A DNA stretch of 64,000 bases. Origin: Candidatus Woesearchaeota archaeon (GTDB lineage Archaea; Nanobdellota; Nanobdellia; SCGC-AAA011-G17; JAGVZF01). Below are positions 2,328-43,417 of this stretch, one piece after another. The stretch's first letter is position 1. Each line of letters begins with the position of its first letter. Location of the stretch: NCBI GenBank assembly GCA_018302785.1, contig JAGVZF010000013.1, positions 10,787 to 74,786 on the forward strand. Reading direction: 5' to 3'. A program made the position numbers and the translations under genes. The notes beneath the pieces are model-generated. The model made no database searches and was not told the DNA's origin. It saw only the letters and a list, made by a program, of their open reading frames with translations.

Positions 2328-2336
2328 ATATCTATA

Positions 2337-2352: not shown

Positions 2353-2396
2353 TTTAGAAAAATATATAAACTTTTTGGTTATTATATTATATTTAT

Positions 2397-3010: not shown

Positions 3011-3027
3011 AACTAAGAATATCAGGT

Positions 3028-3933
3028 ATGCATTGTGAATCTTGTGAAATTACATTAAAGAGAGCTTTTAAAAAACTAAATGATGTTAAAGATGTAAAAC
3101 TCTCTTATGATAATGAAATTGCAGAAATTATTTATAATCCGGATATAAACATAGACTCAGTAATTGAAACAATAAGGTCCGTAGGTTATGACGCAACAGT
3201 TTATGATGGAAAAAACATAGACATTGAAAAACCAAAATTTAGCCATTATGTTAATTCTTTATTAGACAAAAAAAATGAAGTTGAAGGAAGTTTAATCAAA
3301 ATAACTATTCTTACTTTTATTACTTTACTTGGTATTCAAGCAATTGCATATTATGGATTTTTTATGGATATCCCAGAATTTTGGTCAAGATTTGGCTATT
3401 ATATTATTTTTCTAATTATTAGTATTGTATTAAGTGCAGTTGCTGTGTGGCATGTAAAAGCTTATGGTAATAATTTTACTTGCACGACGGGGATGATGAT
3501 TGGAATGACTATAGGTATGGTATCAGGTTTTTTAATTGGATTAATGGTTGGAGCAACAAATGGTATGTTTATAGGCTCTGTTGCAGGAATTGTAATTGGA
3601 ATGGTTGTTGGTACTTGGACTGGAATGTGTTGTGGTGTTATGGGAACTATAGAAGGTATGATGGCTGGTCTAATGGGTGGTTTGATGGGGTCAATGACTT
3701 CATTAATGTTGTTAAATGATCACCTTAAATTAATCATCCCAATTTTAGTAGTTGCATCTTCAGTAATTTTAATAGGCCTTGATTATCTTATCTTCAAGGA
3801 AACTACTGGAACTCAAATTCGTAAAATTAATAAACAGAGCTTCTTACCTTTTTTAACAGTCTGTTTCATAACAATGATGCTATTAACATGGTTAATGGTA
3901 TATGGTCCAAAATCAGCTTTATTTAGATTTTAA
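3028..3933 (+). CDS. HMA-domain protein fused to a Gly/Met-rich polytopic membrane domain
   Basis: MHCESCEITLKRAFKKLNDVKDV...GYDATV (HMA), then TM helices including TGMMIGMTIGMVSGFLIGLMVGATNGMFIGSVAGIVIGMVVGTWTGMCCGVMG. The first HMA strand (LKLRISG) is encoded in-frame upstream of the ATG but has no start codon. Confidence 0.6.
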   Translation: MHCESCEITLKRAFKKLNDVKDVKLSYDNEIAEIIYNPDINIDSVIETIRSVGYDATVYDGKNIDIEKPKFSHYVNSLLDKKNEVEGSLIKITILTFITLLGIQAIAYYGFFMDIPEFWSRFGYYIIFLIISIVLSAVAVWHVKAYGNNFTCTTGMMIGMTIGMVSGFLIGLMVGATNGMFIGSVAGIVIGMVVGTWTGMCCGVMGTIEGMMAGLMGGLMGSMTSLMLLNDHLKLIIPILVVASSVILIGLDYLIFKETTGTQIRKINKQSFLPFLTVCFITMMLLTWLMVYGPKSALFRF

Positions 3934-3935
3934 AA

Positions 3936-4373
3936 ATGTCAGAAGAAATTAAGTTTAAGAAAAGTAATATTATAGGAATTTTAGGAATAGTAATTATAGT
4001 TGTATTTGTTCTAGTTGCAGTAAGAAATGCAATTTCAAAAGACAATAATATTGGTACTGATCTTGTTAAGGGAGGAGATTCTGGAGGAAATAAAGTTGTT
4101 ATAGATGGAGACACTCAAATAATTAACTTGGGCGTTGCAAATTACAATTATGATCCTTCGGAAATTAGTGTTAAATCCGGCAAGTCAGTTAAGATTATAG
4201 GTAATATGCAACAGCTTCAAGGGTGCTTAAGGGCCTTTACAATACCAAAAATGGGGATATCAAAGGTCTTTAGTAATAAAGATAATATACTTGAATTTAC
4301 ACCAACTCAAAAAGGAAGATTTGGCTTTAGTTGTTCAATGGGCATGGGAACAGGTACCTTAATTGTAGAATGA
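3936..4373 (+). CDS. Membrane-anchored cupredoxin-like domain protein (Cupredoxin_1 type)
   Basis: N-terminal TM, then YDPSEISVKSGKSVKI...C...FTIPKMGI...EFTPTQKGRFGFSCSMGMGTGTLIVE, the pattern of small cupredoxin-like proteins found in metal operons. Confidence 0.65.
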   Translation: MSEEIKFKKSNIIGILGIVIIVVFVLVAVRNAISKDNNIGTDLVKGGDSGGNKVVIDGDTQIINLGVANYNYDPSEISVKSGKSVKIIGNMQQLQGCLRAFTIPKMGISKVFSNKDNILEFTPTQKGRFGFSCSMGMGTGTLIVE

Positions 4374-4840
4374 TTAAGTCTGTTTTTAAGAGGCCATATA
4401 TTTATTTTTTCATTCTAATTTTCATTGTTTATCTAACACTTGATATTATTATAAGTCAATTTTATGTAACTATTAGATACATCCCAAAATATCTAAACAC
4501 AATAAATTGGTTTGAATTAGGATTATCTATTTTTCTTACATTGGTTATAGCCTTTCTAGTTTCCTTGACACTTTTACTTTCGTATTTAAAATACAAACAA
4601 AGACAGAACGTTAAAAAGGGACTTACAGTAGCAGCTTTGGGGACTACTGGTGGATTTGCAGCAGGAGTTTGTACTGCTTGCGTTGCAGGAATTTTTCCGT
4701 TTATTTTTTCTTTATTTGGCATTAGTTTCTCATGGCTTTCTCTTCCTTTTAAAGGACTTGAATTTCAAATTTTTGTTATAATTTTATTAATTATAAGTTT
4801 ATATTTATTAAATAAAAGCGATCATATAAAAATTCGATGA
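4370..4840 (+). CDS. Polytopic membrane protein with an intramembrane CxxC (GGFAAGVCTACVAGIFPF)
   Basis: The ATG at 4370 overlaps the upstream stop (ATGA). 4-5 hydrophobic segments. Function unknown. Confidence 0.5.
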   Translation: MIKSVFKRPYIYFFILIFIVYLTLDIIISQFYVTIRYIPKYLNTINWFELGLSIFLTLVIAFLVSLTLLLSYLKYKQRQNVKKGLTVAALGTTGGFAAGVCTACVAGIFPFIFSLFGISFSWLSLPFKGLEFQIFVIILLIISLYLLNKSDHIKIR

Positions 4841-4870
4841 ATTTTTATATCTAAAAGGAAGCAAAAAAAT

Positions 4871-5422
4871 ATGGAAATTTTAATTAAAAACAAAATTTTA
4901 GGATTAATATTAATCGGAATGGCAATAATATTCTTAATAGCAGTAGTTATATTTAAAATTCAAATAGATAATCTAACTAACTCTTTAATGGAAGAAAGTG
5001 GTGGCACATGCATAAGTGAAGGTAAATGCCTTCATGAACAAAGTGATTTACCAGTATATGTTGGCGTAGCCATAGTCTTCATCAATTTAGCGCTTGGAAT
5101 TTATTTACTTATATTTGAAAAAACAAAAGAAAAATCAGAAAAAATACAAAAAGAAATAATTTACACTTTAAAAGAAACTAGAAAGAAACAAGATTACGAT
5201 GAAAAATTTGATTTCTTATTAAAAGCATTAAATGATGATGAAAAAAATATCATGAAAGCCTTAAAGGAGCAAGATGGTATTGAACAAGCTACCTTAAGAA
5301 TAAGAACAAATATGAGTAAGACAAAATTAAGCATAGTCTTATCAGAATTAGAAAAAAAAGGACTAGTTAAAAAAGTTCCAGAAGGCAAAAAGAATAGAAT
5401 ATACCTAAAAAACGCTTTCTGA
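4871..5422 (+). CDS. Membrane-anchored winged-helix transcriptional regulator
   Basis: Two TM segments flank an extracytoplasmic loop with GGTCISEGKCLHE. The C-terminal part is MarR/TrmB-like: NIMKALKEQDGIEQATLRIRTNMSKTKLSIVLSELEKKGLVKKV. Confidence 0.55.
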   Translation: MEILIKNKILGLILIGMAIIFLIAVVIFKIQIDNLTNSLMEESGGTCISEGKCLHEQSDLPVYVGVAIVFINLALGIYLLIFEKTKEKSEKIQKEIIYTLKETRKKQDYDEKFDFLLKALNDDEKNIMKALKEQDGIEQATLRIRTNMSKTKLSIVLSELEKKGLVKKVPEGKKNRIYLKNAF

Positions 5423-5537
5423 ACGATTTTGAACATAAATTTGGCTATTCTGAACAATATTGACGTCTCAGTTTCATGGGTTAATTATATCATATAACTC
5501 CTCTACCCATTTTTAACAAAATTATTGGAGGTTAAAA

Positions 5538-6290
5538 ATGGAAGAAGAAATAAATTCAAAAAGTAAAAATTTATGGGAGAAGGCAATTATTGCAGTTTTA
5601 GTAATAGGTCTGTCCTTTGCTACATTTAACCAATTTCAAATTAGCTCAATAGGAACAGGTAAAGAAATTCCAACAGGAATGTCAACTGTACAAGCTGCGG
5701 TAATTCCAACAGGTATCCCAAAAATATATGGGTCTGAGCTTAATATTAAATACGATGACGTTAGTGTTAATGATGCAGCAAAAGCTGACCAAACAATAAA
5801 GCTTTTGGGAAATCTAGATAATACTATAACTTTAGAAGGTAGTAATTTAGATAGATATGTAGAAATTGCTTCCCAAATGAGTTGTGAGTATTGTTGCGGT
5901 GCTAAATCAATAATATTTACAAAAGAAGACATTACAAGCCTTGAATCTAAAATACAAGAGGCAATTGCAGCTGGAAAATTAACAGAAGATCAAGCCAAAA
6001 CATACAGAAGAAAAGCAGGAGAAGCAGCATGCGGTTGTGCACATAGTTTTGCTATGAGAGGAATTGCTAAGTATTTAATCAAGAATCATGGATCAGAGTT
6101 TACTAATGAAGAAATCTTAAATGAAATGGCTAAATGGAAAACTTTGTTCTTTCCAACTCAAATGACAGCAAAAGCAGAAGCACTAAAGAGCCAAGGAATT
6201 GAATTTAGTTATTCAAATTTAGGTAGCAATAAATACAGAGGCATTGAAAGTGGCTCATCCTCTAATGGAGGAATGGTAGGAGGTTGTTAA
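5538..6290 (+). CDS. Membrane-anchored Cys-rich protein of unknown function ending in MVGGC
   Basis: N-terminal TM plus FQISS motif, Cys clusters SCEYCCGA and AACGCAHSFAMRG, and C-terminus SSSNGGMVGGC. Confidence 0.5.
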   Translation: MEEEINSKSKNLWEKAIIAVLVIGLSFATFNQFQISSIGTGKEIPTGMSTVQAAVIPTGIPKIYGSELNIKYDDVSVNDAAKADQTIKLLGNLDNTITLEGSNLDRYVEIASQMSCEYCCGAKSIIFTKEDITSLESKIQEAIAAGKLTEDQAKTYRRKAGEAACGCAHSFAMRGIAKYLIKNHGSEFTNEEILNEMAKWKTLFFPTQMTAKAEALKSQGIEFSYSNLGSNKYRGIESGSSSNGGMVGGC

Positions 6291-6292
6291 AG

Positions 6293-6568
6293 ATGAAACT
6301 AAATGCAAAACATTTTATTTTCACAATGACAACTTTTGTTGCAGTAGTATATATTATATGTGCAATACTTATTTTAATGGCACCTGTGACATCAATAAAA
6401 ATAGCTAACTTACTATTTCATGGACTTGACCTAACAAAAATATCAAGAACAATAGGTTTTGTTGACATAGTTTATGGATTTATAGTTAGCACTATTGCAA
6501 CAGTAATATATTCAGCAATTTTCGTGACAATTTGGAATTATTTTTATGATAGAATGGAGGTAAAATAA
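6293..6568 (+). CDS. Small 3-TM membrane protein
   Basis: The ORF-track frame was trimmed to the first ATG (6293), just after the upstream stop. Hydrophobic throughout. Confidence 0.45.
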   Translation: MKLNAKHFIFTMTTFVAVVYIICAILILMAPVTSIKIANLLFHGLDLTKISRTIGFVDIVYGFIVSTIATVIYSAIFVTIWNYFYDRMEVK

Positions 6569-6570
6569 AG

Positions 6571-6801
6571 ATGAAAAGCTTAACCATAATGGGAGTGATT
6601 GCAGTAGCTCTTTTAGTTTTTGTAGCTATTCAATCATTCCAAATAAGTGCTTTAAAAAATAGCATTAGTGGAAATGTAGTAGAATCTAGCAGCGGCAGCT
6701 CTGGTGAAAGCTACAACGATATGATGGCTAGAATGCATCCGGATCAAGTTACAAAAAGCACTAGCCCATCAAGCCAGCCAACTATGGTAGGTGGTTGCTA
6801 A
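6571..6801 (+). CDS. Small membrane-anchored Ser/Met-rich protein ending in MVGGC
   Basis: TM plus IQSFQISALK, a Ser-rich linker, MMARMHPDQ, and C-terminus SSQPTMVGGC. Its stop abuts the start of the Trx-CcdA gene. Confidence 0.5.
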   Translation: MKSLTIMGVIAVALLVFVAIQSFQISALKNSISGNVVESSSGSSGESYNDMMARMHPDQVTKSTSPSSQPTMVGGC

Positions 6802-7983
6802 ATGAAAAAACTTTTTTTTATTTTTTTATTTTTTTTATTAGTAATTCCATTTGCTTTAGCAAGTAGCAAAGTAATAATATATCAAAATTCTGCATGTGGT
6901 CATTGCTCAGTTTACCTTAATACTTTTAAACAACTTCTTAATGAAAAATCTATCCAGTATGATGAAAAAAATATTATAGCTGACAAAGAAGCACTTCAAG
7001 AATTAAATGAATTTACTAAAAAGAGAAACATTCCATTTGAACTTCAAGGTCATATGGTTATTGTATTTAATGAAGTAGTATTAGAAGGCCATGTTCCATT
7101 TCCAGTTATAGAAGAATTATTTGAAAAATATCCTAATTATGACTTCCCTAAATTAGTTATATACCAAGATTCGATGGAGGATCTTGTTACAGATTATATC
7201 ATTTTAGATCAAGATGGAAATAAAAAAGAGTGTACTACTGCTAACTCAATAGAAGATTGTAAATTAACTAATAATAAAGAAAAAAATATTATAGATAAAT
7301 CCTTACCAATCTTAGTTATTGTTAATGGATTATTTGCAGGTATTCACCCTTGCACAATAAGTGTTTTACTATTCTTTATAGCATTTTTATTCACAATAAA
7401 AAAATCTAGATTAGGCATATTTAAAATAGGTCTAGCCTACATATTAGGGATATTTATAGCTTATTTAGCTATAGGTTTAGGAATACTAAAAGCTTTATCA
7501 TTTAGTAATAGCCCTCATTTGGCAGCAAAAATAAGTGCTGTATTAGTAATTACCTTAGGGATAATAAATTTAATAGGTTTCTTTTACAAAAAAAGAAAAA
7601 TATCCTTAGGACTTCCAAAGATACTAAAACCAAAAGTTGCAGAGTTACTTCAAAAATCTACAATTCCAGCAGTTTTTATTGTTGGATTAATTGTAGGTAT
7701 TTGCTCGTTTGGTTGTACAGCAGGTATTTATTTATCTATAACTAGTTTATTATTGGCAAATTCTACCTATATGCAAGGCTTAGGCTATTTATTATTGTAT
7801 AATATTATGTTTGTACTTCCTTTAGTTTTAATATTGGTATTTGCTTCAACAACTAAGATAGTAAATAAAGTAACTAAATGGGAAGAATCTGAAAAGAAAT
7901 ATATAAAATTAATAGCGGGAATAATAATGATATTATTAGGATTATTAATTTTGGGGATAACATACATGCCTAAAGGAGGTTAA
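6802..7983 (+). CDS. Thioredoxin-fold domain fused to a CcdA/DsbD-like transmembrane thiol-disulfide electron transporter
   Basis: Signal, NSACGHCSVY (CxxC), then a 6-TM region with the conserved Cys in GIHPCTISVLLFF and GICSFGCTAGIY. Confidence 0.7.
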   Translation: MKKLFFIFLFFLLVIPFALASSKVIIYQNSACGHCSVYLNTFKQLLNEKSIQYDEKNIIADKEALQELNEFTKKRNIPFELQGHMVIVFNEVVLEGHVPFPVIEELFEKYPNYDFPKLVIYQDSMEDLVTDYIILDQDGNKKECTTANSIEDCKLTNNKEKNIIDKSLPILVIVNGLFAGIHPCTISVLLFFIAFLFTIKKSRLGIFKIGLAYILGIFIAYLAIGLGILKALSFSNSPHLAAKISAVLVITLGIINLIGFFYKKRKISLGLPKILKPKVAELLQKSTIPAVFIVGLIVGICSFGCTAGIYLSITSLLLANSTYMQGLGYLLLYNIMFVLPLVLILVFASTTKIVNKVTKWEESEKKYIKLIAGIIMILLGLLILGITYMPKGG

Positions 7984-7984
7984 A

Positions 7985-8140
7985 ATGTTCGGTTTTAAGA
8001 AAAAAGATCCAATTTGTGGAATGAAACAAAGTGAAAATGGAATAGTAAAATATAGGCAATGGTTTTGCTCTAATAAATGTCTAGACATATATGAAAAAGG
8101 AATAAAAAAGATGAGTAAAAAACAAAGTTGCTGCAGCTAA
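7985..8140 (+). CDS. 51-aa YHS/TRASH-type metal-binding mini-protein
   Basis: Own translation: MFGFKKKDPICGMKQSENGIVKYRQWFCSNKCLDIYEKGIKKMSKKQSCCS. It has the DPxCGM...FCSxxC pattern and is tightly packed between its neighbours. Too short for the ORF track. Confidence 0.6.
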   Translation: MFGFKKKDPICGMKQSENGIVKYRQWFCSNKCLDIYEKGIKKMSKKQSCCS

Positions 8141-8141
8141 A

Positions 8142-8732
8142 ATGAAGAAAGTAATTGAAAGTAGGTTAAAAAAGAAATATTTAGTACAAAAACCAATATT
8201 TTTCGGATTAATTGGAAGCTTAATTTTACTTAGTCTATATTTCTTAGTCTTAATTTTGGCAAATTCACCACAGCATGCTATTCAAGAATTTGCAAGAATG
8301 TGGTATTGGATACTTTTTTTGGTTATTGGTTTTGGTATTCAAATTGGCTTATATACATATATAAGATCTTATATTAAATTAAAAAGTATTTTAGGTATAA
8401 AGGGAAATATTGCAGCTACCGGAAGTGTTTCAACAGCTTCTATGCTGGCTTGCTGCGCTCATCATTTGTCAGATATTTTACCAATTATTGGACTAAGCGC
8501 TGCAGCAATTTTCTTTAACAAATATCAAATATTATTTATTATAATAGGTCTTTTATCTAACATAATGGGGATAGTTTATATGTTGAGAATTATTCAAAAA
8601 CACAATTTGTATGAAGAAGATGGTCTCACAAAAAAGTTGATGACGGCTAATTTTCAAACTATATTTTATTACACTTTAAGTCTAAGTGTAATAATTTTTA
8701 TTATAGCTTTATTAATAATAAGGAGGAACTAA
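8142..8732 (+). CDS. Polytopic membrane protein with an intramembrane CC-HH motif (SMLACCAHHLSDILP)
   Basis: ORF track. 5-6 hydrophobic segments. Function unknown. Confidence 0.45.
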   Translation: MKKVIESRLKKKYLVQKPIFFGLIGSLILLSLYFLVLILANSPQHAIQEFARMWYWILFLVIGFGIQIGLYTYIRSYIKLKSILGIKGNIAATGSVSTASMLACCAHHLSDILPIIGLSAAAIFFNKYQILFIIIGLLSNIMGIVYMLRIIQKHNLYEEDGLTKKLMTANFQTIFYYTLSLSVIIFIIALLIIRRN

Positions 8733-10171: not shown

Positions 10172-10230
10172 CCCGAAATAAGCATTATTGTATATAAATT
10201 AATTTAAATAAATTTCTTAGTGCCAATTGA

Positions 10231-24785: not shown

Positions 24786-26760
24786 TATATTCATAATATT
24801 AGGAATTATTATAACAATTTTAATAGTAACAATAGTAATATTTAGAAATTCAATATTTAAAAATGAATTTGAAGTTCAATCAGAAAAATCTTTACAAGTT
24901 CCTGAGCAAATAAAACCAATTAAATCTTATATTGATTCATGTGTAGAATTAACAAGTAAAGAAGCAATAGATATTTTAGGATCACAAGGCGGTTATATTA
25001 ATATTCCAATAGACAGAGTTCCAAGAGGTCCATTTAATCAATTCTCTAATTCATTAGAAGTTGTTCCAAATAGCTTAGTTGCTTATTGGTTTTATGAAAC
25101 ATCTAATAATATTCAAAAAACTCAAATTCCATCATTACAATTTATGGAAAATGAAATAAGTAGATATGTAAATTTAAATTTAGATGAATGCCTAAAAGAA
25201 TTATTTTCATCAGAAGAATACACAAAGTATTCAATAAATTTTCAAGGAAGTCCTGAAACTCAAACTAGTATAAATACAAATTATGTAGAAGTAACTGTTA
25301 ATTATCCAGTAAATATTTATCTTAATGAAATAGGAAAATTAATAGAAACTCATTATGTAAAGTTAGACATTCCATTAGGAGAGTTATATGAAACTTCAAA
25401 TGAAATATTAAATAAAGAGTATAATGAAAATTTCTTTAGTAAAAAAACAATAGACATGCTTTCTGTTTATGAAGAAGTTCCATATTCTGGAATTTCTCTA
25501 GACTGTAATACTCCAACATGGTCAAAATCTCAAGTAATTAAAAATTTAAAAAACATAGTAAGCTTAAATATTGGAGCTACAAAATTAAAAGGATCTCAAT
25601 ATACTTTAAGTGATGAATCTCATAAATACTTTGAATTAGAAACTAGCACAAATAATAATCAAATAAATTCATTTTTCTTATATTCACAAAATTGGCCATT
25701 ATCTATAGAAATTTATCCATCAGAAAATGAAATATTATCAGCAGACCAAATTACAAGAGCAACTGGAAATAAAGCAACTGAAGTTCTTTCTAAGATTCTT
25801 TGTTTAAATACATATAATTTCATCTATGACATAAAATATCCAATTTTAATTTCACTTGAAAAAGATAATTACATATTTCAATATGGCTTACAAGTTATAA
25901 TAGATAATAATCAACCAAAAACAAATGAATTAGGAGATCTAGATCTTGATGAAGTTCCATTTGATATTTGTTCTAGAAAAGTTACTCCAATAACTGTAAA
26001 TGTTCTAGGGAAAAATGGAAATCAACTAAAACCAATAGAAGCAGAAGTATCATATCAATGCTTTGCAACATCTTGTTATATAGGTAAAACTCAGCTTGAT
26101 GAATTTAATGATTATAAATTAACAGCTTTATTTCCAGAATGCTTAAATGGTCAGGTAATAGCTGAAAATAAAGATTACTTTACAACAAAAGAAATTATAG
26201 ACTCTAATGAAGAAACTTCTGTTTCTGTAGTAATGAAGCAATATTATAATTTTAATTATGATATTAAAGTCATAGAAAAATCATCTGGATATATAAGAGA
26301 TCTAGCAGAAGATGAAGATGTAATGTTTGAATTTAAGAATTTAGATGAAGATTATACTTTATATTTATCAAAAGATGAAAATGATTTGAAATTAATAGAA
26401 GGAAACTATCAAATAAAATCATATTTATCTAAAAAAAGTGAAACTAAATTTAAAATAGATCAACAAGAAATTTCTAAATGCATAAAAATTCCTAGAGCAG
26501 GCATTCTAGGTTTATTCCTTAAAACAGAGAAATGTGCAACTTCAACAATAGAAGCAACAGAATTAGATGATGTAATTGTTGGAGGAATTGAAACAGAAAT
26601 TAAAATAGATCCATTAAAATCTAATAAAGATAAAGTATCATTATATACTGTATTTGATAAAATTCCAACTTCATATGATGATTTAAGCGAAATAGAAAAA
26701 AACATAGGAAGTAATTCACAAATTCCATCATATAAAAAGCCGGAGTTCCAAAATGAATAA
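24766..26760 (+). CDS. 664-aa extracellular protein with an archaeal class III (prepilin-type) signal peptide
   Basis: The N-terminus MKRGQISIFIILGIIITILIV fits the K/R-G|Q-x-S prepilin-peptidase pattern. The remainder has no recognisable domain. Confidence 0.5.
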   Translation: MKRGQISIFIILGIIITILIVTIVIFRNSIFKNEFEVQSEKSLQVPEQIKPIKSYIDSCVELTSKEAIDILGSQGGYINIPIDRVPRGPFNQFSNSLEVVPNSLVAYWFYETSNNIQKTQIPSLQFMENEISRYVNLNLDECLKELFSSEEYTKYSINFQGSPETQTSINTNYVEVTVNYPVNIYLNEIGKLIETHYVKLDIPLGELYETSNEILNKEYNENFFSKKTIDMLSVYEEVPYSGISLDCNTPTWSKSQVIKNLKNIVSLNIGATKLKGSQYTLSDESHKYFELETSTNNNQINSFFLYSQNWPLSIEIYPSENEILSADQITRATGNKATEVLSKILCLNTYNFIYDIKYPILISLEKDNYIFQYGLQVIIDNNQPKTNELGDLDLDEVPFDICSRKVTPITVNVLGKNGNQLKPIEAEVSYQCFATSCYIGKTQLDEFNDYKLTALFPECLNGQVIAENKDYFTTKEIIDSNEETSVSVVMKQYYNFNYDIKVIEKSSGYIRDLAEDEDVMFEFKNLDEDYTLYLSKDENDLKLIEGNYQIKSYLSKKSETKFKIDQQEISKCIKIPRAGILGLFLKTEKCATSTIEATELDDVIVGGIETEIKIDPLKSNKDKVSLYTVFDKIPTSYDDLSEIEKNIGSNSQIPSYKKPEFQNE

Positions 26761-27742
26761 ACAATTAATTTCATTACTAATGATTGTACTTTTTGTTAGT
26801 TTACCATTTGCTGTAGCTCAAGAAAGAGAAGATCTTGGGGAAGTAATTAATATTAATGTTAATACTTATCAACCAGCAGTAGTTCCATCTAATATTTTGG
26901 CAGAGCAAGATGTTCCAGTCTATGCATATCTAGAAGGAACTACATTAGGATCTTTACTTTTACAAAATAATGCTGTAAACATTCCTCCATTGTATAAACT
27001 ACCAAAAATATCAAAAATAAACATTGCAATAAAAGATCCTAGTAATTATGTAATTTCTGTTCAAGCTAAACCACCATATAAAAAAATTTATGCAAGAGAT
27101 AATAATTCAGTAGACTTAGGTTATTTAATTGTAAGACTAAGAAAAATAAAAAAAGAAAATGAAGTTCCAGATGTTATTAATGTAAATTTAACAGCAAAAA
27201 TAAACTTTGAATTAGATGAAGGTTTTAGTATATTTGGGACTCAAGATTTACTTTTAAGAGAATCAAATGATGAAAATAACTGGAAATCTACTAGAACTGA
27301 AGAATCTGCATTTTGGAATAAAAAAGGATATGTAAGAGCTTATAATATTAAAAGTGGAAAAGCAAGCTTTGAAGTTTATGATGGTTCATTTGATAGTTTA
27401 ACAACATTAAATGACAAAACATCTGATTTTGTTTCAAACTCAATTAGATTTAAAACAGGAGAGTTTGAAGATTCAAATTTACTAGATGATAGATTTAGAT
27501 TGAAAGTGCAAAGAATTTCAGTTCCAGAACCAAAAGCAAATTTAAGAATTATTGATTCCTCTGGAAAAATCTCTGATAAAACAGTAACAAAAGGGATGTC
27601 TATATTAGAAGGAAGTTCATATAGAGTAAAAGAAATAAGACCAAGAAGACCAACAGATAAAGGTCAACTAGAAGAAATTATAATTCAAAAAGGAAATGAT
27701 AAACAAATTTATCTAAGAACTTTATATCAATCCGGTAATTGA
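26753..27742 (+). CDS. Secreted protein (Sec signal, AVA-Q), unknown domain; probably the N-terminal part of a longer frameshifted gene
   Basis: MNKQLISLLMIVLFVSLPFAVAQE. The ORF end overlaps the open frame carrying the lytic-transglycosylase domain. Confidence 0.5.
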   Translation: MNKQLISLLMIVLFVSLPFAVAQEREDLGEVININVNTYQPAVVPSNILAEQDVPVYAYLEGTTLGSLLLQNNAVNIPPLYKLPKISKINIAIKDPSNYVISVQAKPPYKKIYARDNNSVDLGYLIVRLRKIKKENEVPDVINVNLTAKINFELDEGFSIFGTQDLLLRESNDENNWKSTRTEESAFWNKKGYVRAYNIKSGKASFEVYDGSFDSLTTLNDKTSDFVSNSIRFKTGEFEDSNLLDDRFRLKVQRISVPEPKANLRIIDSSGKISDKTVTKGMSILEGSSYRVKEIRPRRPTDKGQLEEIIIQKGNDKQIYLRTLYQSGN

Positions 27743-28175
27743 TGTAGAATCTGGAGGAGATTCTAAAGCAGTTTCATGCACAGGTCCAGCTGGTCTTATG
27801 CAACTAAGTATAGATGCTGCAAATGATGTTAGAACTTCATTAGGCTCAGAATCAGAATATCCAAAAATTCAACATTATCAATTAAATGGACAAGGAAATC
27901 CAATATGCAGCTGCAGTTATTCCAAAGATTGTAGAGATGAGTCTATCGACTGGAGATTTAATAAGGATAAAAATGTTAAAGCAGGAACTCAATATTTACT
28001 TAAATTAATCAACAAATATAATAAAGATTTAAGGCTTGCATTATTGGCATATAATGCTGGTCCTGGTTCAGTAGACCAAGTCTGTCAAACTCCACCTACA
28101 AATATTAAAGAAATAAATTTTGATTATGATTCCTGCAAAAATAACAATATGTGCAAAAAATCTTTAATAAATTAA
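27717..28175 (+). CDS. Lytic transglycosylase (SLT) domain segment in a shifted frame, with no start codon upstream of the catalytic Glu
   Basis: The open frame from 27717 reads ELYINPVIDVESGGDSKAVSCTGPAGLMQL...LLAYNAGPGSV (E-S, GLMQ and AYNAG motifs). The first ATG (27798) lies after the catalytic ES. Confidence 0.6.
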   Translation, partial: ELYINPVIDVESGGDSKAVSCTGPAGLMQLSIDAANDVRTSLGSESEYPKIQHYQLNGQGNPICSCSYSKDCRDESIDWRFNKDKNVKAGTQYLLKLINKYNKDLRLALLAYNAGPGSVDQVCQTPPTNIKEINFDYDSCKNNNMCKKSLIN

Positions 28176-31100
28176 AAGAGCAAACAGGAATAGAATTAGA
28201 TATTACAAAACCAGTATATTTAGATCAAACTACAGTTACAGTATCAACAGAAACGCAAGTAGGATCTCAAAATCCTTGCACTAACGCAAAAATACTTAGT
28301 GATAAAGAAATAGAAGAAACCTCAAGTTATATTGATTTATATTGTACTGCAATAAATGAATTAAAGTCTTTAATTGATAATTATCCAGAATCTCCATTAA
28401 TTTCTTCTTCATATGAATTAATAGCAGATATTTATTTTAATTATCTAAAAAACAAATTATTAGCAAGAGACAACTATGAACTCGCTTTGTTAACAGCTAA
28501 TAGCTTACAAAAAGACTCAATAGAAGTAAAATTAAAAGATTTAAATAAAGCTATTGGAGAAAGCATAGAATATGGTCATGCATTATTAGATGATGAAGCA
28601 CTTGAAGTTTCACTATTAAGAGTAATTCCTAAAGAAGATAATGCAGAAGCAACATTAAGAATTGATTCAACAACAACTAATAAGAAAGTAAATGACCCTT
28701 TATTTGATGGAATTGGAACAGATAATAAAGGAAATTATAGAGTACATCTTATAGAAATACAATCTGATTTTATAAGAATTATAAAAACATATAGTAAAGA
28801 AGATAATAATGGTAAAGAAAATTTACCAGATCCTCAGAGATATACAATAACATTAAACAATAGACTGGAATTAGTTGAAGACAAATCAATAAATAAATTT
28901 CGCTTAATAGAATTACTTGGAACAGATACAAAAGAAGAAGCAATAGTAACTATTTTGCCAGGATCTGGAAAAGAAACAAGTACATCTGATTTCTCTTTAC
29001 ATATTCCAATTGAAAAAAGAGCTATAAGATTTACCCCAGAAGAAATAGATAATAAAATTGCAAGAACTAAAAGATTAATAGACAAGCTTGATTCAGTAAT
29101 TTCTAAATTAGAAAAGACATTAAAAGTGTGGAAAGCAACTTGCCTAATAACAATGGCAGTTTTGACAGTTAAAAATTCATTCTTCAATCCAATTAAGAAC
29201 CTAGCAAGAAGAACAGTCATGAGAGGTCCTGATGGTCAAAGCGGTTGGAATCAAATTTGCAGTGATAGACTCAGAACTGAACTTGATCCAAAAACTGGTA
29301 GGCCACGATTTAGAACTATTGATGAATGTATTGAGGCTAATGCTGATGAAATTGAACAGGAGATTTCTAACACAGAAAATGTTATCAAAAGAACAGAAAC
29401 TCTTGTCAAAAGCCTTGGAAATATTAAAGAAACTTCATCACAAGCTAAGTTATCAGAATTAATAGGAAATGATTTATCACAAGAACAAATTCAAAGGCTT
29501 AATGAAATCGGTAGACTAGGAAATGATGAGGCAAGAAATCTAATTTTGTTAAAGAATTCCAATCTAGACTCACCTCAACAAGCAGAATATAATAAAAAAA
29601 TCGAAGAGTACAAAAAAGAAGCAGATTTAGAAATTGGAATTCAGCAGAAACTTCAAAGTACAACTTATGAAGGTGAGGATAAACTTAGACTAGAATTATC
29701 TTTAAGGAAATCATTACCAGCTACAATAAAAGCTAGGGAATTATATGAATCAACCTCAGATATAGTAAAAAATTACATTACTGAAAATAATTTGGAAGAT
29801 AAAGACTTTAAACCAATATTCTTAGTTTATCCAGAGGAAAATCAGCCAGGGAATCTTACACCACAAGAACAAAAATTCAGCACATTCTATGATGAAAAAA
29901 AAGAAACCAATCTTAAAAGACTCTTTATTGGAAATACTCAGGCAGCCTTAAACGGTCAAGAGATTTATATTCAAACAGACAATAGAGGAAATATTATTAA
30001 TTACTATGTTTCAAGTGGTGGAGTATCAGATGATTCAAGATGTCCAAAATCTTTAGTTTACAGTGGAAGTCCAAGTGTTATTTATGATGATAAAGGTAAG
30101 CCATTAATAATCCCAATACAAACCCCTCAACTAGATAGTAACTATGCAGATTATGTAATATTTGGTTATGATCTAGACACTAAATTGCCAAATCAATATA
30201 GTATATTTAATGTTGGTCTTGATCAAATTATTTCTGAATTAAATAGAAATACAAGTGATGATTGTGTTGTAGAAAATAAAGAAAGCTTTGATGATAAAAC
30301 TCAGACTTCAAAAATAGTATCTCAAGCTTATAATGAAGCATTAAAAGGTTATCAAACAGTTCAAGAAAAAGGAATTAGCTCAAAAGTAAAAATACTTGGA
30401 AAAGAATACTTTGTTAATTATGCATCAAATAGAGTTGATGAGTTACTAAATCCACAATGCACAGATGTATTTAGCATTTCAGATTGCCATATTATGTTTG
30501 GTATTTGTGATCCAGTAATTTGTCCTACTTCAAGATTTGACTTTGGTAATACATGGAAAGTTGACAATGTTGTTCAAACTGGAATCGTTGGAAGTGTTTT
30601 ACTAGGAATTAAAAATTTAGCTCCATATGAACCAGTTCCTGTATGTTTAACTGGAGTTTTAGCAGGCCTCCAGAATATAAAATCTATATTAGAAGGCTTA
30701 AATGAATGTCTTCAAACAGCAAAAGTCAAAGGAGAATATGTAGGAATTTGTGATGCAATAACATCTATTTATATTTGTGAAACTGTTTGGAGGGAAGGTC
30801 TTGCATTATATAGATTAAAAGGAAAAGTAATAAACTGGATGAGTAAAGATATATTACATCAAGATCCTGATGGTGGAGAATATCTTACATTTAAGAATTC
30901 CTTAAAAAATGTTGAAGATAGTGCAAAATTCCTTACAAAAGACTATGCGCAAAATACATTTAAGGATTATGCTGGAAAGAGTTTCGATGAAGTTGGTTCT
31001 GTAATTTGCAGACAAGCAATTTATTCAAGCACTCCAGGAGTAGGCAAATTCCTAGATCAAGTCCTTCAACCAGAAAGCCCTCCTCAATTTACTGCAATAT

Positions 31101-33223
31101 TAAATGTATATCCATGGGCAACACTTCCTGATGAAAAAGGAAGAGTAACTCAAGAGCAATCTAGGTATCAAATTTATTATCATGTATATGCTGGAAATAA
31201 TAAAGCAATTAGATATAGTGTAATATTAAAAGATCCATTAGGAAGACAAATTTATGTTACTGAAAATCCAGAGACTGTAAGAAGAATAAGAAATAGCTTA
31301 GAAGCAGGAGATTATAAAGATAAAACTATTGATTTTGTTGCTGCATCTGGTTATAATGAAGTTTGTATTGAAGTAGATGGTATTGAAAGATGCGGCTTTG
31401 GATCTGTAACAAGTGCATTTTCATTTAATTTCTTAAAAGATGAACTAGTAAAAAATGAATTAAGTAAACCTATTACAAATGAAGAAGAATGTACACTAAC
31501 AAATTCAGGTTTAAGTTCAAGCATTTTATCATTAACAAATACTCAAAGTAAATCAAGTTTTGGAGCAACTTATACAGGTATTATTAGAGAATGCCAATTA
31601 GATAACCCAGGAAAAGGAACTAATGCTCAAGACTGGAAAAAAATTCCAAATAGTGATTGTGGAAAAGATGAAAGAGGCAGAGATTTAGGTTATTGTTGGC
31701 TTTATGTAAATCCAGAAGTACTTAACCTAGATTATGTACAAGGCAATGAAAATTTAATTCTTAACCTAACTGGTTTAACAAAAGAACAAGTAATTACTTT
31801 AGATGATGAAGAAAAAACCAAAGAAAGAATTCAAACATTTAGTTTAGATGAAAGATTTAATGAATTAGCTAGTTTAACTTGTGATGATATAGAAAAAAAC
31901 AAAAAAGAAATAATTACAAAATCAAATGATTTTATTAGAGATTCAAGAGAAGTTATGTCAAAAAGCATGGCTACAAATATAGTTGACGAATTACAGTTTA
32001 ATATAGCAAAAGTATATATAAAATTAGGAGGTTGTGACTATCTAAAAGTACAAGAAACTGAAGCAGTAAAATACTCTGAATTAATAACTGGGATATCTAA
32101 AGTTGCATGTACAGAAGAAATGACTCTAGAATTAAAACAAGAAAAAGAGTTTAGAGATTATAAAATTAGAGTTGCAAGCATATATGCACCTGAAATTAAA
32201 GGAAATAAGGCTGATCCTCTTGATTTCGACGTTGAACCATTTAATCCTACTAGTGGAATTCCACAAGCATCAGAAGATAAAAAATATGATTACAGCAAAT
32301 GCAATGTAGAATTTGATATTATGAGAAATGGTAAACAAATAGATTGCGTTCCAATTAGTTCCTACCAGTTATTTAACTTATTTAGAAAAGCATTAAATGT
32401 TAAAGGAATAAATAAATATTCAGATTGTGAAAATTTACAAATTAAGTTGCTACAGTGTAATCAAGATAATGTTAAGTTAGAAATTAGAACTAATGAATTA
32501 TCAAACTCAGATAAAAATAGAATTGAGAAAGATATTCGAGACGCAATTGCATTAGAAAATCAAAATGGAGATAATATACAAATAAATAAAATAAGTTATG
32601 TGGAAGGTCAAAGCAAAATATTATTGGAGCTTTCTGGTTCAATTAGTCTTAGCTTAAGACAAAAGCTAGATGAAATAATTCAACCATGTCGTCAAACTCT
32701 AGAAATTAGCCAAGCTGCAACAGACTACGAAGGAGAGTTTCAAGACACTGTAGATACAATAAGAGCAGATATTAGAAGTATGTTAAGTGTATTTGACCTT
32801 AATGCCATTAAAATTACAATAAATCCGATAACAGCAAATGAAATTAGAGGATCAACATTACAATTACAAACAAACGAATTTTTATCAGAGCAGCTTGTTT
32901 TAGATATTCAAGAATATTTAAACCGATATGGTATCACATTAGAAATATTAAATGCCAATATTATTTGTTGGGAAATTAACAAACAAAATATTATTAGTGA
33001 AGAAGAATGTCATGGCGAAAATGATGAAAATGCATGTTTTATAAAGAAAGATAAAAAAATTTTCGGATTAGGCTTTATGAAGAAATCAAGTTGTTTGCCA
33101 TGCCAAGATTCAACAACAATGGAAGATCTAAATAATGATAAAGTAAGATGCAACGATAGATGTAAAGACATAGCCCCCTTCCACCTCTACTATTCAGATA
33201 GAGCAAAATTATGTGTAGTATAA
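28151..33223 (+). CDS. 1690-aa Cys-rich giant protein, unknown function; GTG start in the track, no signal peptide of its own
   Basis: ORF track. TPR-like N-terminal region, one internal TM (about residue 330, CLITMAVLTV), and many paired Cys (CTDVFSISDCHIMFGICDPVICP...). Confidence 0.5.
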   Translation: MQKIFNKLKEQTGIELDITKPVYLDQTTVTVSTETQVGSQNPCTNAKILSDKEIEETSSYIDLYCTAINELKSLIDNYPESPLISSSYELIADIYFNYLKNKLLARDNYELALLTANSLQKDSIEVKLKDLNKAIGESIEYGHALLDDEALEVSLLRVIPKEDNAEATLRIDSTTTNKKVNDPLFDGIGTDNKGNYRVHLIEIQSDFIRIIKTYSKEDNNGKENLPDPQRYTITLNNRLELVEDKSINKFRLIELLGTDTKEEAIVTILPGSGKETSTSDFSLHIPIEKRAIRFTPEEIDNKIARTKRLIDKLDSVISKLEKTLKVWKATCLITMAVLTVKNSFFNPIKNLARRTVMRGPDGQSGWNQICSDRLRTELDPKTGRPRFRTIDECIEANADEIEQEISNTENVIKRTETLVKSLGNIKETSSQAKLSELIGNDLSQEQIQRLNEIGRLGNDEARNLILLKNSNLDSPQQAEYNKKIEEYKKEADLEIGIQQKLQSTTYEGEDKLRLELSLRKSLPATIKARELYESTSDIVKNYITENNLEDKDFKPIFLVYPEENQPGNLTPQEQKFSTFYDEKKETNLKRLFIGNTQAALNGQEIYIQTDNRGNIINYYVSSGGVSDDSRCPKSLVYSGSPSVIYDDKGKPLIIPIQTPQLDSNYADYVIFGYDLDTKLPNQYSIFNVGLDQIISELNRNTSDDCVVENKESFDDKTQTSKIVSQAYNEALKGYQTVQEKGISSKVKILGKEYFVNYASNRVDELLNPQCTDVFSISDCHIMFGICDPVICPTSRFDFGNTWKVDNVVQTGIVGSVLLGIKNLAPYEPVPVCLTGVLAGLQNIKSILEGLNECLQTAKVKGEYVGICDAITSIYICETVWREGLALYRLKGKVINWMSKDILHQDPDGGEYLTFKNSLKNVEDSAKFLTKDYAQNTFKDYAGKSFDEVGSVICRQAIYSSTPGVGKFLDQVLQPESPPQFTAILNVYPWATLPDEKGRVTQEQSRYQIYYHVYAGNNKAIRYSVILKDPLGRQIYVTENPETVRRIRNSLEAGDYKDKTIDFVAASGYNEVCIEVDGIERCGFGSVTSAFSFNFLKDELVKNELSKPITNEEECTLTNSGLSSSILSLTNTQSKSSFGATYTGIIRECQLDNPGKGTNAQDWKKIPNSDCGKDERGRDLGYCWLYVNPEVLNLDYVQGNENLILNLTGLTKEQVITLDDEEKTKERIQTFSLDERFNELASLTCDDIEKNKKEIITKSNDFIRDSREVMSKSMATNIVDELQFNIAKVYIKLGGCDYLKVQETEAVKYSELITGISKVACTEEMTLELKQEKEFRDYKIRVASIYAPEIKGNKADPLDFDVEPFNPTSGIPQASEDKKYDYSKCNVEFDIMRNGKQIDCVPISSYQLFNLFRKALNVKGINKYSDCENLQIKLLQCNQDNVKLEIRTNELSNSDKNRIEKDIRDAIALENQNGDNIQINKISYVEGQSKILLELSGSISLSLRQKLDEIIQPCRQTLEISQAATDYEGEFQDTVDTIRADIRSMLSVFDLNAIKITINPITANEIRGSTLQLQTNEFLSEQLVLDIQEYLNRYGITLEILNANIICWEINKQNIISEEECHGENDENACFIKKDKKIFGLGFMKKSSCLPCQDSTTMEDLNNDKVRCNDRCKDIAPFHLYYSDRAKLCVV

Positions 33224-39493: not shown

Positions 39494-42400
39494 ATGGTAG
39501 AATATAATCATTTAACTGAAGGTCCAGCATATGTAGAACCAATTAAATCATCAAGAAAAAATGGGTTAGAGCAAAGAATAGAATGGTACAAAGATAGATC
39601 AGAAATAGAAGGTCTTAAAGAAAATCAAATAAAAATAATTAAAAAAATCTATCTCAAAGATGACACAAAATATTCTGCATGGCTTGGCAGAGTTGCAAGA
39701 AACGTAGCATTAGGAGAATTAATTTATGTTCCTGAATTTCATCAAAGAATTTTTGAAGGAGTAGATTATAAAACAGAAACTAAAACAACTGTTGATGGTC
39801 AAACAACTGATGCATATCTTTTACACGATAATAAAGGTGTAGGGCATTCTGCACAAAGAGACCCTAATTTTAATATGTTTAGGGCAAACCTCTATATGCT
39901 TAGACAAGAAAACCAAGAAGCACAGTCACTTGTAGACAAAGTAGAAGAAGAATTTTACAGCATGCTTTCTCAATTCAGGTTTATTCCTAATAGCCCAACA
40001 TTAATGAATGCAGGACGTGATCTCCAACAACTTAGTGCATGCTATGTTTTACCTATAGATGACACTATTGAATCATGGGGATTAACTACACTAAATACAA
40101 TGCTCATTCACAAAAGCGGAGGAGGTACTGGTTTTTCAGGAAATCGTGTAAGACCAAGAGGTGATACTGTTAAGGGATCGTATGGAACAGCATCCGGACC
40201 TATATCAGTTTTCGAAATTATTGATAAAGCAACTCAAGAAGTAAAACAAGGTGGTACAAGAAGAGGTGCAAATATGGGCATACTTCCATATAATCATCCT
40301 GACATAAGAGAATTTATTGAATACAAAAAGAAAAATCCAGGACATTTAGAAAATTTTAATGTCTCTGTAGGAATAACTCAAGAATTTGTAAACGCAGTAG
40401 AAAAGGGAGAAACATATCTTCTAATAAATCCAAGAACAGGAAAAGTTCAAGTAGACCAAAATGGCAATAAAGTATCGGAAAATGCTTCAGAAATTTGGAA
40501 TTTAATCATTCAAAGTGCTTGGGAAACAGGTGATCCAGGATATGTAGTAATAGATAGAATTAACAATTCTACTTCAAATCCAACTCCTGCAATTGGTAAT
40601 ATTGAAGCAACAAATCCTTGTGTGGCTGAAGGCACACTAGTTAACACTCCAAATGGTTTTGTCCCAGTTGAAAATATTAAAGTCGGAGATCTTGTAAGCA
40701 CAGTTTTTGGATATGGACCAGTAAAAACTATAGAAATACATGAAAATACTCCAGTTTTCAAAGTTAAATTTTCAGATGGAGGAGAACAAATAGTTACAGC
40801 AGCACATAGGTATTTTGCAATTAAGAAAGGTAGTCAAAGCAAAAAACTTTCCGATATTAGGTTAGATCAATTACAACCTGGAGATTATGTAAGGGTAAAA
40901 TCAACATTACTGCAAAACTATTCTCCTGAAGATTATTTTAAAGGATTAAAAACTGGAATTCTTCTTGGAGATTGGTGTTATGCAAAAAAAATGCTTTCAA
41001 AAGGCACGGTCAAAATAGCTTCCAATCAAGAGGACATAGAATACAATAAAAACATTAAAATGCTTTTTGGAAATTTATCATTTCAAAAAGATGATACTAG
41101 CTCAATTAGTAAATCAGTTAATATGATTCTTTCTAATGGTCAACAACTTCTGCAAGAAGTTCAGCTTAATAGCGCCTATTCATTTGAGAAAAGTTTTGAC
41201 ATCACTAATATTAGAACTAAAGACATGGTATTAGGAATTTTAGACGGCCTTCTTGCAACAGACGGAGACATTAATTTAAAGTCTAACCATCCTCAAATTA
41301 GATTTGTAACATCTTCTGAAGCTTTAGCACAAAACATTAGAAGACTTCTACTAATGATAGGATGTCATGGTAGAATTTCAAAGAGTTTCTATGATGACGG
41401 AGGCAAGATAAATGGAAGAAAAATAATTAGAAAACATGACAAATTCTCAATTTGCTTATCTGGTGAAAGTGCTAGAACCTTTGCCAAATATTCATTACTG
41501 AAGAACATCAATCCTAAAAAAGGAAATCAATTGCAAAATTTAAGAAAACAATGGATGGCTACAGGAAACACATGGAAAGCAAGAATTATTTCAATTGAAC
41601 CTATGGGAAATGCTAAAGTATTTGATTTATATAATGAAGCTAGTGATACATGGATAACTGATGGATATGTACAACGAGGTTGTGGTGAACAGCCTTTATT
41701 GCCTAATGAACCATGCAATTTAGGAAGTATTAATCTCTTTGCTCATATGAGAAGAGATGATGGAAGAGCACTTCTAGAAATAGGAACTGGGGAAGATATT
41801 ACTGAATTTAATAGAGCTACTGTAAATGGTTCAGCTTACTTAGACATGCAAGCTTTAGAGAGAACAGTCAAATCAGCAGTTAGATTCCTAGATAATGTAA
41901 TTGACGTAAATAATTATCCCTTACCAGAAATAGAAGTAATTGCTAAAAGTAATAGAAGAATAGGTCTTGGTATTATGGGATTAGCTGAAACATTTTCAAT
42001 ACTTGGCATAGCCTATGATTCTGAAGAAGCAGTTGCAAAAACAAGAGGAGTAATGAAATTTATAAATGAAAAAGCTCATGATGAATCCAAAAAACTTGCC
42101 CAAGAAAGAGGTATATTCCCAAACTTTAAGAATAGTATATTTGATGAAAACGGAAGTCATTTTAGACCAAATCAAACTAGTCCAGAATATTATCCAAGGA
42201 ATTGTGCAGTAACCACAATTGCTCCAACAGGAACTATAGCATTAGCAGCAGGATTAGATGGTCAAGGCATTGAACCATTTTTTGCTATTGCCTTAGAAAG
42301 ATACACAGCAGATGGATTGGACGCAAAAAGACATGGAGAACAACCTAAAGACAGAGACATATTAAAGATAATGAATACTTTATTTGAAGAAGTAGCACAG

Positions 42401-43417
42401 GAAAATAATTATTTTGGTTTAACCAGAGATGAATTATGGCAAAGAATAAAGAATAGTAATGGTTCAGTTAGACATCTAGAAGAAATTCCCGAAGAAATTA
42501 GAAGAGCATTTCCATCAGCTCATGACATTGACTTAACATATCATGTTGGACATCAGGCCGCAACTCAAGAACATACTGATAATGCTGTTAGTAAAACAAT
42601 AAATTTCCCAAAACAAGCTACTGTTGAAGATGTAAATGCAGCTTATTGGCTAGCATACAAATCAGGTTGTAAAGGAATTACTATATACAGAGATGGAAGT
42701 AAAAAAGATCAAGTTCTTAACTTAGAAGGAAAACTAGCACAAGAGCCTTCACTAATACAAGTAGAAGTTCAAGATACACATGCAAGACTTGAGGTAAGTG
42801 CCAATGCTGGACATTATCGAATAACAAGGCCAGAAAAAAATAAAGACAAGTTACATGTAATTTTAGCAGACGATCTTTATGTAGATAGTAGTGGAAATGC
42901 TTTCCTTTTACCAAGAAGAGATTTCCAAGTAAGAGCTCCTCCTGGTCAAGAAACATCTGTTGATTTTGGAATGGAAGGACTATTGTTGACAGAAATCCTT
43001 AAAGGAGAAGATCCTAATTATGCAAAAATAGTTACATGGCTAAAGTCACCTCGATCAAATGAAGAAGAGGGAATAGGTCCTACTATACTTTGGACTAAAC
43101 ATCACGCAGTAGGAATTGCTTTGGAATATCATCTTTTAAAGAATGGAATTATAGCATATAATACAGATAATAATACTTTAGAAAATAAAGTAAGAAAAAG
43201 AGATTTAAGAAAAGTAGAAGACGAAGAAGAAAAGAATACAATACTACAAAGATCTAGAAAAACTAATGGATCAATAAATCAAATTACTGCAGGTAATACT
43301 ATAGGTAATAAGCTGTTTGAATGTCAACAATGTGGCTCGAATGAATTTACATACCATGCAGGCTGTCATGATCCTGTATGTGTTCCATGTGGTTGGAGCA
43401 GCGGCTTATGTGGCTAA
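39494..43417 (+). CDS. nrdJ: Ribonucleotide reductase, class II (adenosylcobalamin-type, NrdJ-like) with one intein
   Basis: FIPNSPTLMNAG. Radical-Cys motif ATNP/CGEQPLLPNEPCNLGSINL, split by the intein. TIAPTGT, and a C-terminal Cys-rich tail CQQCGSNEF..CHDPVCVPCGWSSGLCG. The class is assigned from the NPCGEQ motif only. Confidence 0.8.
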   Translation: MVEYNHLTEGPAYVEPIKSSRKNGLEQRIEWYKDRSEIEGLKENQIKIIKKIYLKDDTKYSAWLGRVARNVALGELIYVPEFHQRIFEGVDYKTETKTTVDGQTTDAYLLHDNKGVGHSAQRDPNFNMFRANLYMLRQENQEAQSLVDKVEEEFYSMLSQFRFIPNSPTLMNAGRDLQQLSACYVLPIDDTIESWGLTTLNTMLIHKSGGGTGFSGNRVRPRGDTVKGSYGTASGPISVFEIIDKATQEVKQGGTRRGANMGILPYNHPDIREFIEYKKKNPGHLENFNVSVGITQEFVNAVEKGETYLLINPRTGKVQVDQNGNKVSENASEIWNLIIQSAWETGDPGYVVIDRINNSTSNPTPAIGNIEATNPCVAEGTLVNTPNGFVPVENIKVGDLVSTVFGYGPVKTIEIHENTPVFKVKFSDGGEQIVTAAHRYFAIKKGSQSKKLSDIRLDQLQPGDYVRVKSTLLQNYSPEDYFKGLKTGILLGDWCYAKKMLSKGTVKIASNQEDIEYNKNIKMLFGNLSFQKDDTSSISKSVNMILSNGQQLLQEVQLNSAYSFEKSFDITNIRTKDMVLGILDGLLATDGDINLKSNHPQIRFVTSSEALAQNIRRLLLMIGCHGRISKSFYDDGGKINGRKIIRKHDKFSICLSGESARTFAKYSLLKNINPKKGNQLQNLRKQWMATGNTWKARIISIEPMGNAKVFDLYNEASDTWITDGYVQRGCGEQPLLPNEPCNLGSINLFAHMRRDDGRALLEIGTGEDITEFNRATVNGSAYLDMQALERTVKSAVRFLDNVIDVNNYPLPEIEVIAKSNRRIGLGIMGLAETFSILGIAYDSEEAVAKTRGVMKFINEKAHDESKKLAQERGIFPNFKNSIFDENGSHFRPNQTSPEYYPRNCAVTTIAPTGTIALAAGLDGQGIEPFFAIALERYTADGLDAKRHGEQPKDRDILKIMNTLFEEVAQENNYFGLTRDELWQRIKNSNGSVRHLEEIPEEIRRAFPSAHDIDLTYHVGHQAATQEHTDNAVSKTINFPKQATVEDVNAAYWLAYKSGCKGITIYRDGSKKDQVLNLEGKLAQEPSLIQVEVQDTHARLEVSANAGHYRITRPEKNKDKLHVILADDLYVDSSGNAFLLPRRDFQVRAPPGQETSVDFGMEGLLLTEILKGEDPNYAKIVTWLKSPRSNEEEGIGPTILWTKHHAVGIALEYHLLKNGIIAYNTDNNTLENKVRKRDLRKVEDEEEKNTILQRSRKTNGSINQITAGNTIGNKLFECQQCGSNEFTYHAGCHDPVCVPCGWSSGLCG
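40619..41680 (+). mobile_element. 354-aa intein with a LAGLIDADG homing-endonuclease domain, inserted immediately before the RNR radical Cys
   Basis: Block A CVAEGTLVNTPNGFVPVENI, block B IVTAAHRYF, LAGLIDADG motifs GILLGDWC and ILDGLLATDGD, block F KVFDLYNEASDTWITDG. It ends in VQRG and is followed by CGEQPL. Confidence 0.75.

Follow-up and report, generated by a model that had tools for sequence, protein, structure and literature searches.

A giant lytic-transglycosylase gene, broken in one Woesearchaeota draft genome and intact in independent assemblies

Giant extracellular proteins with a domain of the murein-like lytic-transglycosylase type have been described from Woesearchaeota and Pacearchaeota as family fam00969 (Castelle et al. 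2021, PMC8204110; also Vigneron et al. 2022, PMC9723730). According to the citations of Castelle et al. 2015 in PMC8204110 and PMC9723730, such giants were first noted in AR20, and the binding or degradation of bacterial cell walls has been proposed as the role of the family (PMC8204110; PMC9723730). The locus analysed here lies in a 64,000-nt stretch of DNA (the window, here always meaning that whole stretch) from a 0.95-Mb draft genome of 48 contigs, in which a lytic-transglycosylase (SLT) domain is found in a reading frame of its own between two open reading frames that share another.

An arrangement of this kind calls to mind genes that are expressed by programmed frameshifting, among them prfB (+1 at CUU UGA C), dnaX (-1 at A AAA AAG) and fucA1 of Saccharolobus solfataricus (-1 at A AAA AAT). 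The likeness is superficial: the frames at the locus overlap by ~26-31 nt, with UGA-U in the first overlap and an A-run in the second. In contrast to those genes, the breaks at this locus arise from 47- and 49-nt deletions, lie off the candidate slippery sites and are absent in near-identical genomes.

Reading frames at the deposited locus

The frame layout is as the original prediction had it. ORF1 and ORF3 (28151-33223) lie in one frame, both starts being 2 modulo 3, and the SLT segment between them is in frame 0, open from 27717 to 28175. No ATG, GTG or TTG precedes the ATG at 27798 in the SLT frame, and the codon for the predicted catalytic Glu (GAA, 27747-27749) lies upstream of it. ORF1 encodes 329 aa and ORF3 encodes 1690 aa when counted from the GTG at 28151, its frame being open from 28145; this GTG encodes an internal Val and does not start a gene. 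The depositor's annotation of the locus lists three proteins, of 329, 125 and 1690 aa. The SLT open frame, 152 codons long in DNA of 28% GC, is not a product of chance: it keeps the ES, GLMQ and AYNAG motifs. The window segment matches Pfam SLT PF01464 with E = 1e-17 (64.2 bits vs a cut-off of 21.3). The TAA (27714-27716) that opens the SLT frame and the TGA that ends ORF1 both come from out-of-frame reading around the first of the two junctions in Table 1, as do the final residues of ORF1 (GN, then stop), which are read past it.

Table 1 Coordinates of the features discussed (window positions, unless another locus is named)
Feature	Position	Strand	Basis
Whole gene as assembled, a broken copy of a 2188-aa secreted giant with an SLT domain	26753..33223	+	P0007 equals the three window pieces plus 33 residues
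ORF1, 329 aa, N-terminal part with a Sec-type signal peptide, MNKQLISLLMIVLFVSLPFAVAQE	26753..27742	+	Identical to P0007 residues 1-327
Junction 1, 47 nt absent (AACATCAACTCAAGCCACTCAAATAAATATTCAACCTATAGTTAATG)	27732..27733	+	Alignment with four independent assemblies; blastn vs L025
410-nt island with the SLT core (VIDVESGG ... GLMQ ... AYNAGPG ... DYDSCKN)	27733..28142	+	100% identical to intact assemblies; frame differs here
Junction 2, 49 nt absent (ACAGCAAGATTCTTTATTAATGGAAAGGAAAAAGAAATACAAGTAGACA)	28142..28143	+	Alignment with four independent assemblies; blastn
ORF3 frame, starting with QYVQKIFNKL, then the remaining ~1690 residues of the giant	28143..33223	+	Identical to P0007 residues 497-2188
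A6 run, proposed slippage site, uninvolved	28155..28160	+	Same length (GTGCAAAAAATC) in all four intact assemblies
Homologous giant genes in same-family genomes	L014 (G003:C38) 1953-8378; L015 (G002:C11) 707-7474		
Gap or junk sites in scaffolds of the giant gene	L029 3960-4140 and 1110-1140; L028 ~980-1048		

Elsewhere in the window, positions 39494-43417 encode a B12-dependent ribonucleotide reductase of 1307 aa; it contains an intein whose endonuclease region is of LAGLIDADG type (hits in NCBIfam and Pfam at residues ~420-632). In the same genome (contig C1, minus strand, reverse-complement frame 6402-8439), translation of the S12 gene points to an apparent intein-like insertion of ~500 aa, which sits between ...SAMRKC and NCVSCQV....

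The intact gene and the two missing segments

A single gene comprises ORF1, the SLT segment and ORF3, as the original prediction had proposed at a length of about 2150 aa; its intact form encodes 2188 aa. A single 90% cluster takes in ORF1, the 125-aa SLT ORF, ORF3 and two proteins of 2188 aa, P0007 and P0009. P0007 is encoded without interruption on 16 contigs, which derive from ENA MEGAHIT assemblies, JGI 3300002502 and 3300002105, and Logan SRR2090153 and SRR2090155. It is letter-identical to the window pieces save for 16 extra residues before VIDVES (TSTQATQINIQPIVNA, between ...LYQS and VIDVESGG) and 17 before QYVQKIF (TARFFINGKEKEIQVDK, between ...DYDSCKN and QYVQKIF). The 329-aa product of ORF1, by contrast with the intact form, was found solely on the window's own contig. 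At the nucleotide level, four of the 16 contigs aligned to the window are fully identical to it except at the two junctions. Against these findings on four contigs may be set the longer comparisons: blastn of the window against ENA contig k141_1835907 gave 26,567 nt with 0 mismatches and two gaps only, of 47 and 49 nt, and window 29494-53417 aligned to a JGI contig with 0 mismatches and 0 gaps. Window proteins of 575 and 437 aa appear on independent contigs as 576/574 and 438 aa, most likely because another start was called. At window 43905, the window and the JGI contig have one copy fewer of an intergenic 15-nt tandem unit (TAAAATTTTAATATC) than ENA k141_1835907, which is the sole difference in 24 kb.

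The breaks in the frame had been envisaged as single-base shifts, one of +1 and one of -1; they are instead deletions of 47 nt (3n+2) and 49 nt (3n+1), and because these add up to 96 nt, ORF3 is back in the frame of ORF1. The segment lost at junction 1 encodes (S)TSTQATQINIQPIVN(A), the helix leading into the predicted catalytic Glu, and that lost at junction 2 encodes TARFFINGKEKEIQVD(K). The position of junction 2 is ambiguous by 1 nt (an A), so that it falls either between 28142 and 28143 or between 28143 and 28144; no useful microhomology was found at junction 1. A first comparison, with the sister-species genome G001 alone, had given losses of ~50 and 49 nt that were ambiguous at 46% identity, and was superseded by the 100%-identical contigs.

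These data bear directly on recoding. In that reading, slippage of the ribosome or during transcription would move the frame by +1 at AAT-TGA-T (27737-27743) and by -1 at the A6 run or close to it, and the sequence as assembled would yield a fused protein. A +1 shift at UGA-U would indeed read GAU GUA GAA and so keep the predicted catalytic Glu, and the A6 run lies inside a 31-nt frame overlap. Near-identical genomes, however, need no shift at all, and the junctions supported by homology are 8-13 nt off both proposed sites. No in-phase slippery motif coincides with the switch in homology: the A6 run is present at 28155-28160, as had been stated, but it is not the downstream junction, being identical in the intact assemblies and situated 12 nt downstream of junction 2, and its phase is AAA AAA T, which does not form an X XXY YYZ heptamer. 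The fused product would, moreover, be without the helix before the catalytic Glu and would carry NNNMCKK in place of QYVQK. The orthologues P0004 and P0005 and the proteins of G003 and G002 are all encoded in a single frame. The frame break is thus not conserved, a single frame being found in the 16 contigs of the same population and in all orthologues examined, and the probability left to recoding is close to nil. Programmed frameshifting and homopolymer phase variation, both offered in the original prediction, are excluded, since 16 independent contigs of this population have the frame uninterrupted. As regards phase variation, the A6 tract is moreover invariant in five sequences, and what differs is the loss of two segments of complex sequence, 47 and 49 nt long. 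Two further candidates were tried and rejected. Under an alternative genetic code, reading TGA 27740 as sense runs into TAA/TAG within a few codons. BHB-type introns or an RNA-derived assembly do not fit missing segments that encode conserved residues and whose removal breaks the frame, which holds likewise for 22 nt missing from the thermosome gene of this genome (see below).

The intact gene product is a 2188-aa secreted giant surface protein of a Woesearchaeota (DPANN) archaeon. It consists, in order, of a Sec signal peptide, an N-terminal domain of ~330 aa, a GH23/SLT domain at ~335-520 and a long Cys-rich C-terminal part that contains hydrophobic segments. Intact P0007 matches PF01464 with 58.8 bits (E = 4.9e-16). 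Its stretch with ES followed by GLMQ, PIVNAVIDVESGGDSKAVSCTGPAGLMQL, aligns to the lytic transglycosylase chain 9vi7_A, and this alignment to a solved lytic transglycosylase predicts Glu348, in the ES motif, as the catalytic residue; the helix residues before VIDVES fall within the 47 nt that the window is missing. The AYNxG motif is present in LLAYNAGPGSV. Beyond the core, QYVQKIFNKL aligns to AYVKQILNQI in P0004 and to SYANDVFNLY in P0005, in both cases just past their SLT cores. The downstream frame break thus falls inside the sequence that surrounds the SLT core, and a stand-alone SLT gene is untenable.

Orthologues bear this out, the question having been whether they are fused or separate: they are fused. 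In same-genus G001, one frame runs from an ORF1-like domain through the SLT domain into an ORF3-like continuation. The full-length orthologue P0004 (2195 aa, 42% identity) and a relative, P0005 (2210 aa), have the same order of parts. In same-family G003 and G002, ORF1-like and ORF3-like parts are joined in single proteins of 2141 and 2255 aa; ORF1 shares homology with the N-termini of P0004 and of the 2141-aa protein of G003. The SLT domain of the G003 and G002 giants is located at the C-terminus (~1950-2070 of 2141), whereas in the genus studied here it follows the N-terminal domain (~335-520); it has moved within the giant protein family. The orthologue proteins of the sister species are listed at NCBI under Candidatus Woesearchaeota archaeon.

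A reading as three separate genes, with the SLT protein starting from a non-canonical ATT at 27738 or ATC at ~27726, or from the ATG at 27798, would accord with the depositor's list of three products. A product from ATG 27798 would, however, be without the catalytic Glu, and a stand-alone SLT product would have neither a signal peptide nor QYVQKIFNKL, which is in the ORF3 frame. No SD-like sequence was found before the ATT, the ATC or GTG 28151. Relatives of the same genus and the same family encode the parts in one frame and none has a separate SLT gene at the locus; orthologous three-gene loci with a proper SLT start were not found among the relatives examined. Termination-reinitiation, or an ATT/ATC start for a lone SLT gene, was rejected on the same features: SD and signal peptide are both lacking, and what follows the core is in another frame. 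Three genes are thus extremely unlikely, and a start-less separate SLT gene, as had been suggested, is excluded by the uninterrupted frame in the 16 contigs of the same population.

Origin of the deletions

Very probably, then, the double frameshift is an assembly artefact of this MAG, and represents neither recoding, nor phase variation, nor a start-less gene. Among the four causes that the original prediction had offered, sequencing or assembly indels is the one supported, on the basis of independent assemblies rather than of reads. Neither deletion junction of the SLT gene is present among 241 million JGI metagenome records, and both are absent from all other assemblies; the junctions were judged to occur only here on records other than those of the window's own genome.

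Similar defects occur elsewhere in the same MAG. At window 2488, within a gene at 2461-2973, 20 nt (ACTTGGAGAATAATTTGGGG) are absent in comparison with three independent assemblies, so that a PadR-like regulator is split that the independent assemblies encode intact (198 aa); this frameshift is an artefact of the same kind as that in the SLT gene. ENA and JGI contigs have 150 nt that the window is missing at ~3007 (between 2993 and 3012). With them go the last part of a 67-aa HMA gene and the first part of a 311-aa HMA gene, which leaves a window ORF (3028-3933) of 301 aa. As 519 nt separate the 20-nt and 150-nt deletions, these form a second pair around a short island, and the deletions in the window are accordingly paired, bracketing islands of 410 and 519 nt. 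A genome-wide scan for overlapping open frames returned 38 candidate pairs, mostly ordinary neighbouring genes, from which the thermosome and rtcA genes were examined further. The thermosome gene (contig C13, 11322) has a 22-nt deletion within its conserved ECK-NPKAVTL-IVRGG stretch and is split into 368 + 173 aa; the intact 546-aa thermosome (P0030) is encoded on 20 independent contigs. Contig C13 also shows, at ~1485, the loss of 107 nt from a TP_methylase gene and, at 10201, the tandem duplication of 7 nt (TGGGGGT). In the rtcA gene (RNA 3'-phosphate cyclase; contig C21, 12643-13648), 5 nt are deleted in comparison with relatives of 88% identity, which breaks the gene (119 vs 336 aa). Over the ~78 kb compared with independent assemblies of this population, there are ~7 indels vs at most 3 SNPs. 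Indels therefore outnumber SNPs, the opposite of natural divergence, which shows the reverse ratio.

The giant gene is broken in further assemblies too. In the MAG of the sister species (L013, G001:C14, 810-850, minus strand), the orthologous giant gene is without 119 nt that are present in contig k141_2086229 of ENA ERZ4903185; this contig is 100% identical to the G001 locus and encodes the intact 2195 aa, whereas the G001 products are MBS3146710.1 (763 aa) and MBS3146709.1 (238 aa). The 119-nt gap is flanked by just 4 nt of microhomology (AGTT). ENA scaffolds of the series ANAN16-1_SAMN0384xxxx (ERZ285636xx) have gaps of 10 N and longer, together with junk sequence, inside the same giant gene. 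Breaks in these records that seemed recurrent, namely an ENA split of the same gene into P0011 + P0008 (822 + 1356 aa) and 450-aa forms of the sister gene, trace to the N-gaps and junk; they too are assembly artefacts and do not speak for real variants.

The deletions could in principle be real: a subpopulation might truly have lost the 47 + 49 nt, inactivating the SLT domain and truncating the giant after 329 aa, which would amount to pseudogenisation or to losing a surface or attack protein. Both deletions are clean and have otherwise perfect flanks, the orthologous G001 gene likewise has an out-of-frame deletion (the 119 nt), and inactivation frequently targets giant surface proteins. Yet such an allele would have two independent deletions separated by 410 nt, and not a single SNP over 26.5 kb. 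The same type of defect affects the essential thermosome and other genes of this MAG, with indels far above SNPs, and the junctions are missing from the JGI records, while the intact form comes from several samples and assemblers. The second deletion cannot be understood as a rescue of the frame, because a TGA lies 8 nt past the first junction. A real deletion allele is therefore, on the balance of these points, unlikely. The bolder version, in which the 47- and 49-nt deletions and the 119-nt deletion of the sister species are real, recurrent minority alleles that switch off a giant peptidoglycan-attacking surface protein, is very unlikely; if true, it would mean irreversible on/off variation of a DPANN host-interaction apparatus in part of the population.

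An origin in assembly or scaffolding, rather than in a rare real allele, is what we infer, and the same applies to the route by which gaps may have been joined. The MAG sequence is without 47 nt right before the predicted catalytic Glu and without 49 nt right before QYVQKIFNKL. Each loss shifts the frame, so that the SLT core is seen as a start-less ORF and the downstream part returns to the upstream frame. The three pieces were likely butt-joined over small unfilled gaps, and the 410-nt island may represent a short contig placed between its neighbours. Scaffolding with gaps of such a size was evidently used, because the MAG keeps two N-runs, of 35 and 38 nt. No provable assembler signature was found at the junctions: the two deletions differ in length (47 and 49 nt), and repeats of k-mer length are not present.

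Comparison with known giants and transglycosylases

It had been anticipated that, should assembly errors be responsible, a single gene would be confirmed and the interest in recoding would vanish; this is the outcome, reached through independent assemblies rather than through reads. What remains is, first, a caution. This MAG and at least one sister MAG carry deletions of 5-150 nt at about one per 10 kb, and such deletions produce false frameshifts, start-less ORFs and truncated genes, the thermosome included. Further oddities of this genome (a frameshifted PadR, a truncated Dph2, genes without a start codon) need to be checked against ENA, JGI and Logan contigs first.

Second, the intact gene is a clean full-length example of a kind of giant surface protein with an SLT domain that was already known from Woesearchaeota. 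In common with bacterial family-1 lytic transglycosylases (PF01464; MltC, PDB 9vi7), it has the ES, GLMQ and AYNxG motifs, and both halves of its domain align to 9vi7_A, the similarity to solved structures being weak (E = 0.0097). Unlike in those enzymes, the domain here forms part of an archaeal surface protein of 2188 aa, and a Cys-rich insert of ~45 residues separates GLMQ from the domain's second half. With fam00969 the protein shares a DPANN (Woesearchaeota) host whose genome measures ~0.95 Mb, a length above 2000 aa, a signal peptide and a single SLT/GH23 domain, with the binding or cutting of bacterial peptidoglycan as its presumed role. The giants of fam00969 reach up to ~3000 aa, and the protein described here agrees with them in being a large extracellular SLT protein from a small genome, its membership in the family being by description only. 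Once the assembly error is removed, there is no substantive difference between this protein and fam00969.
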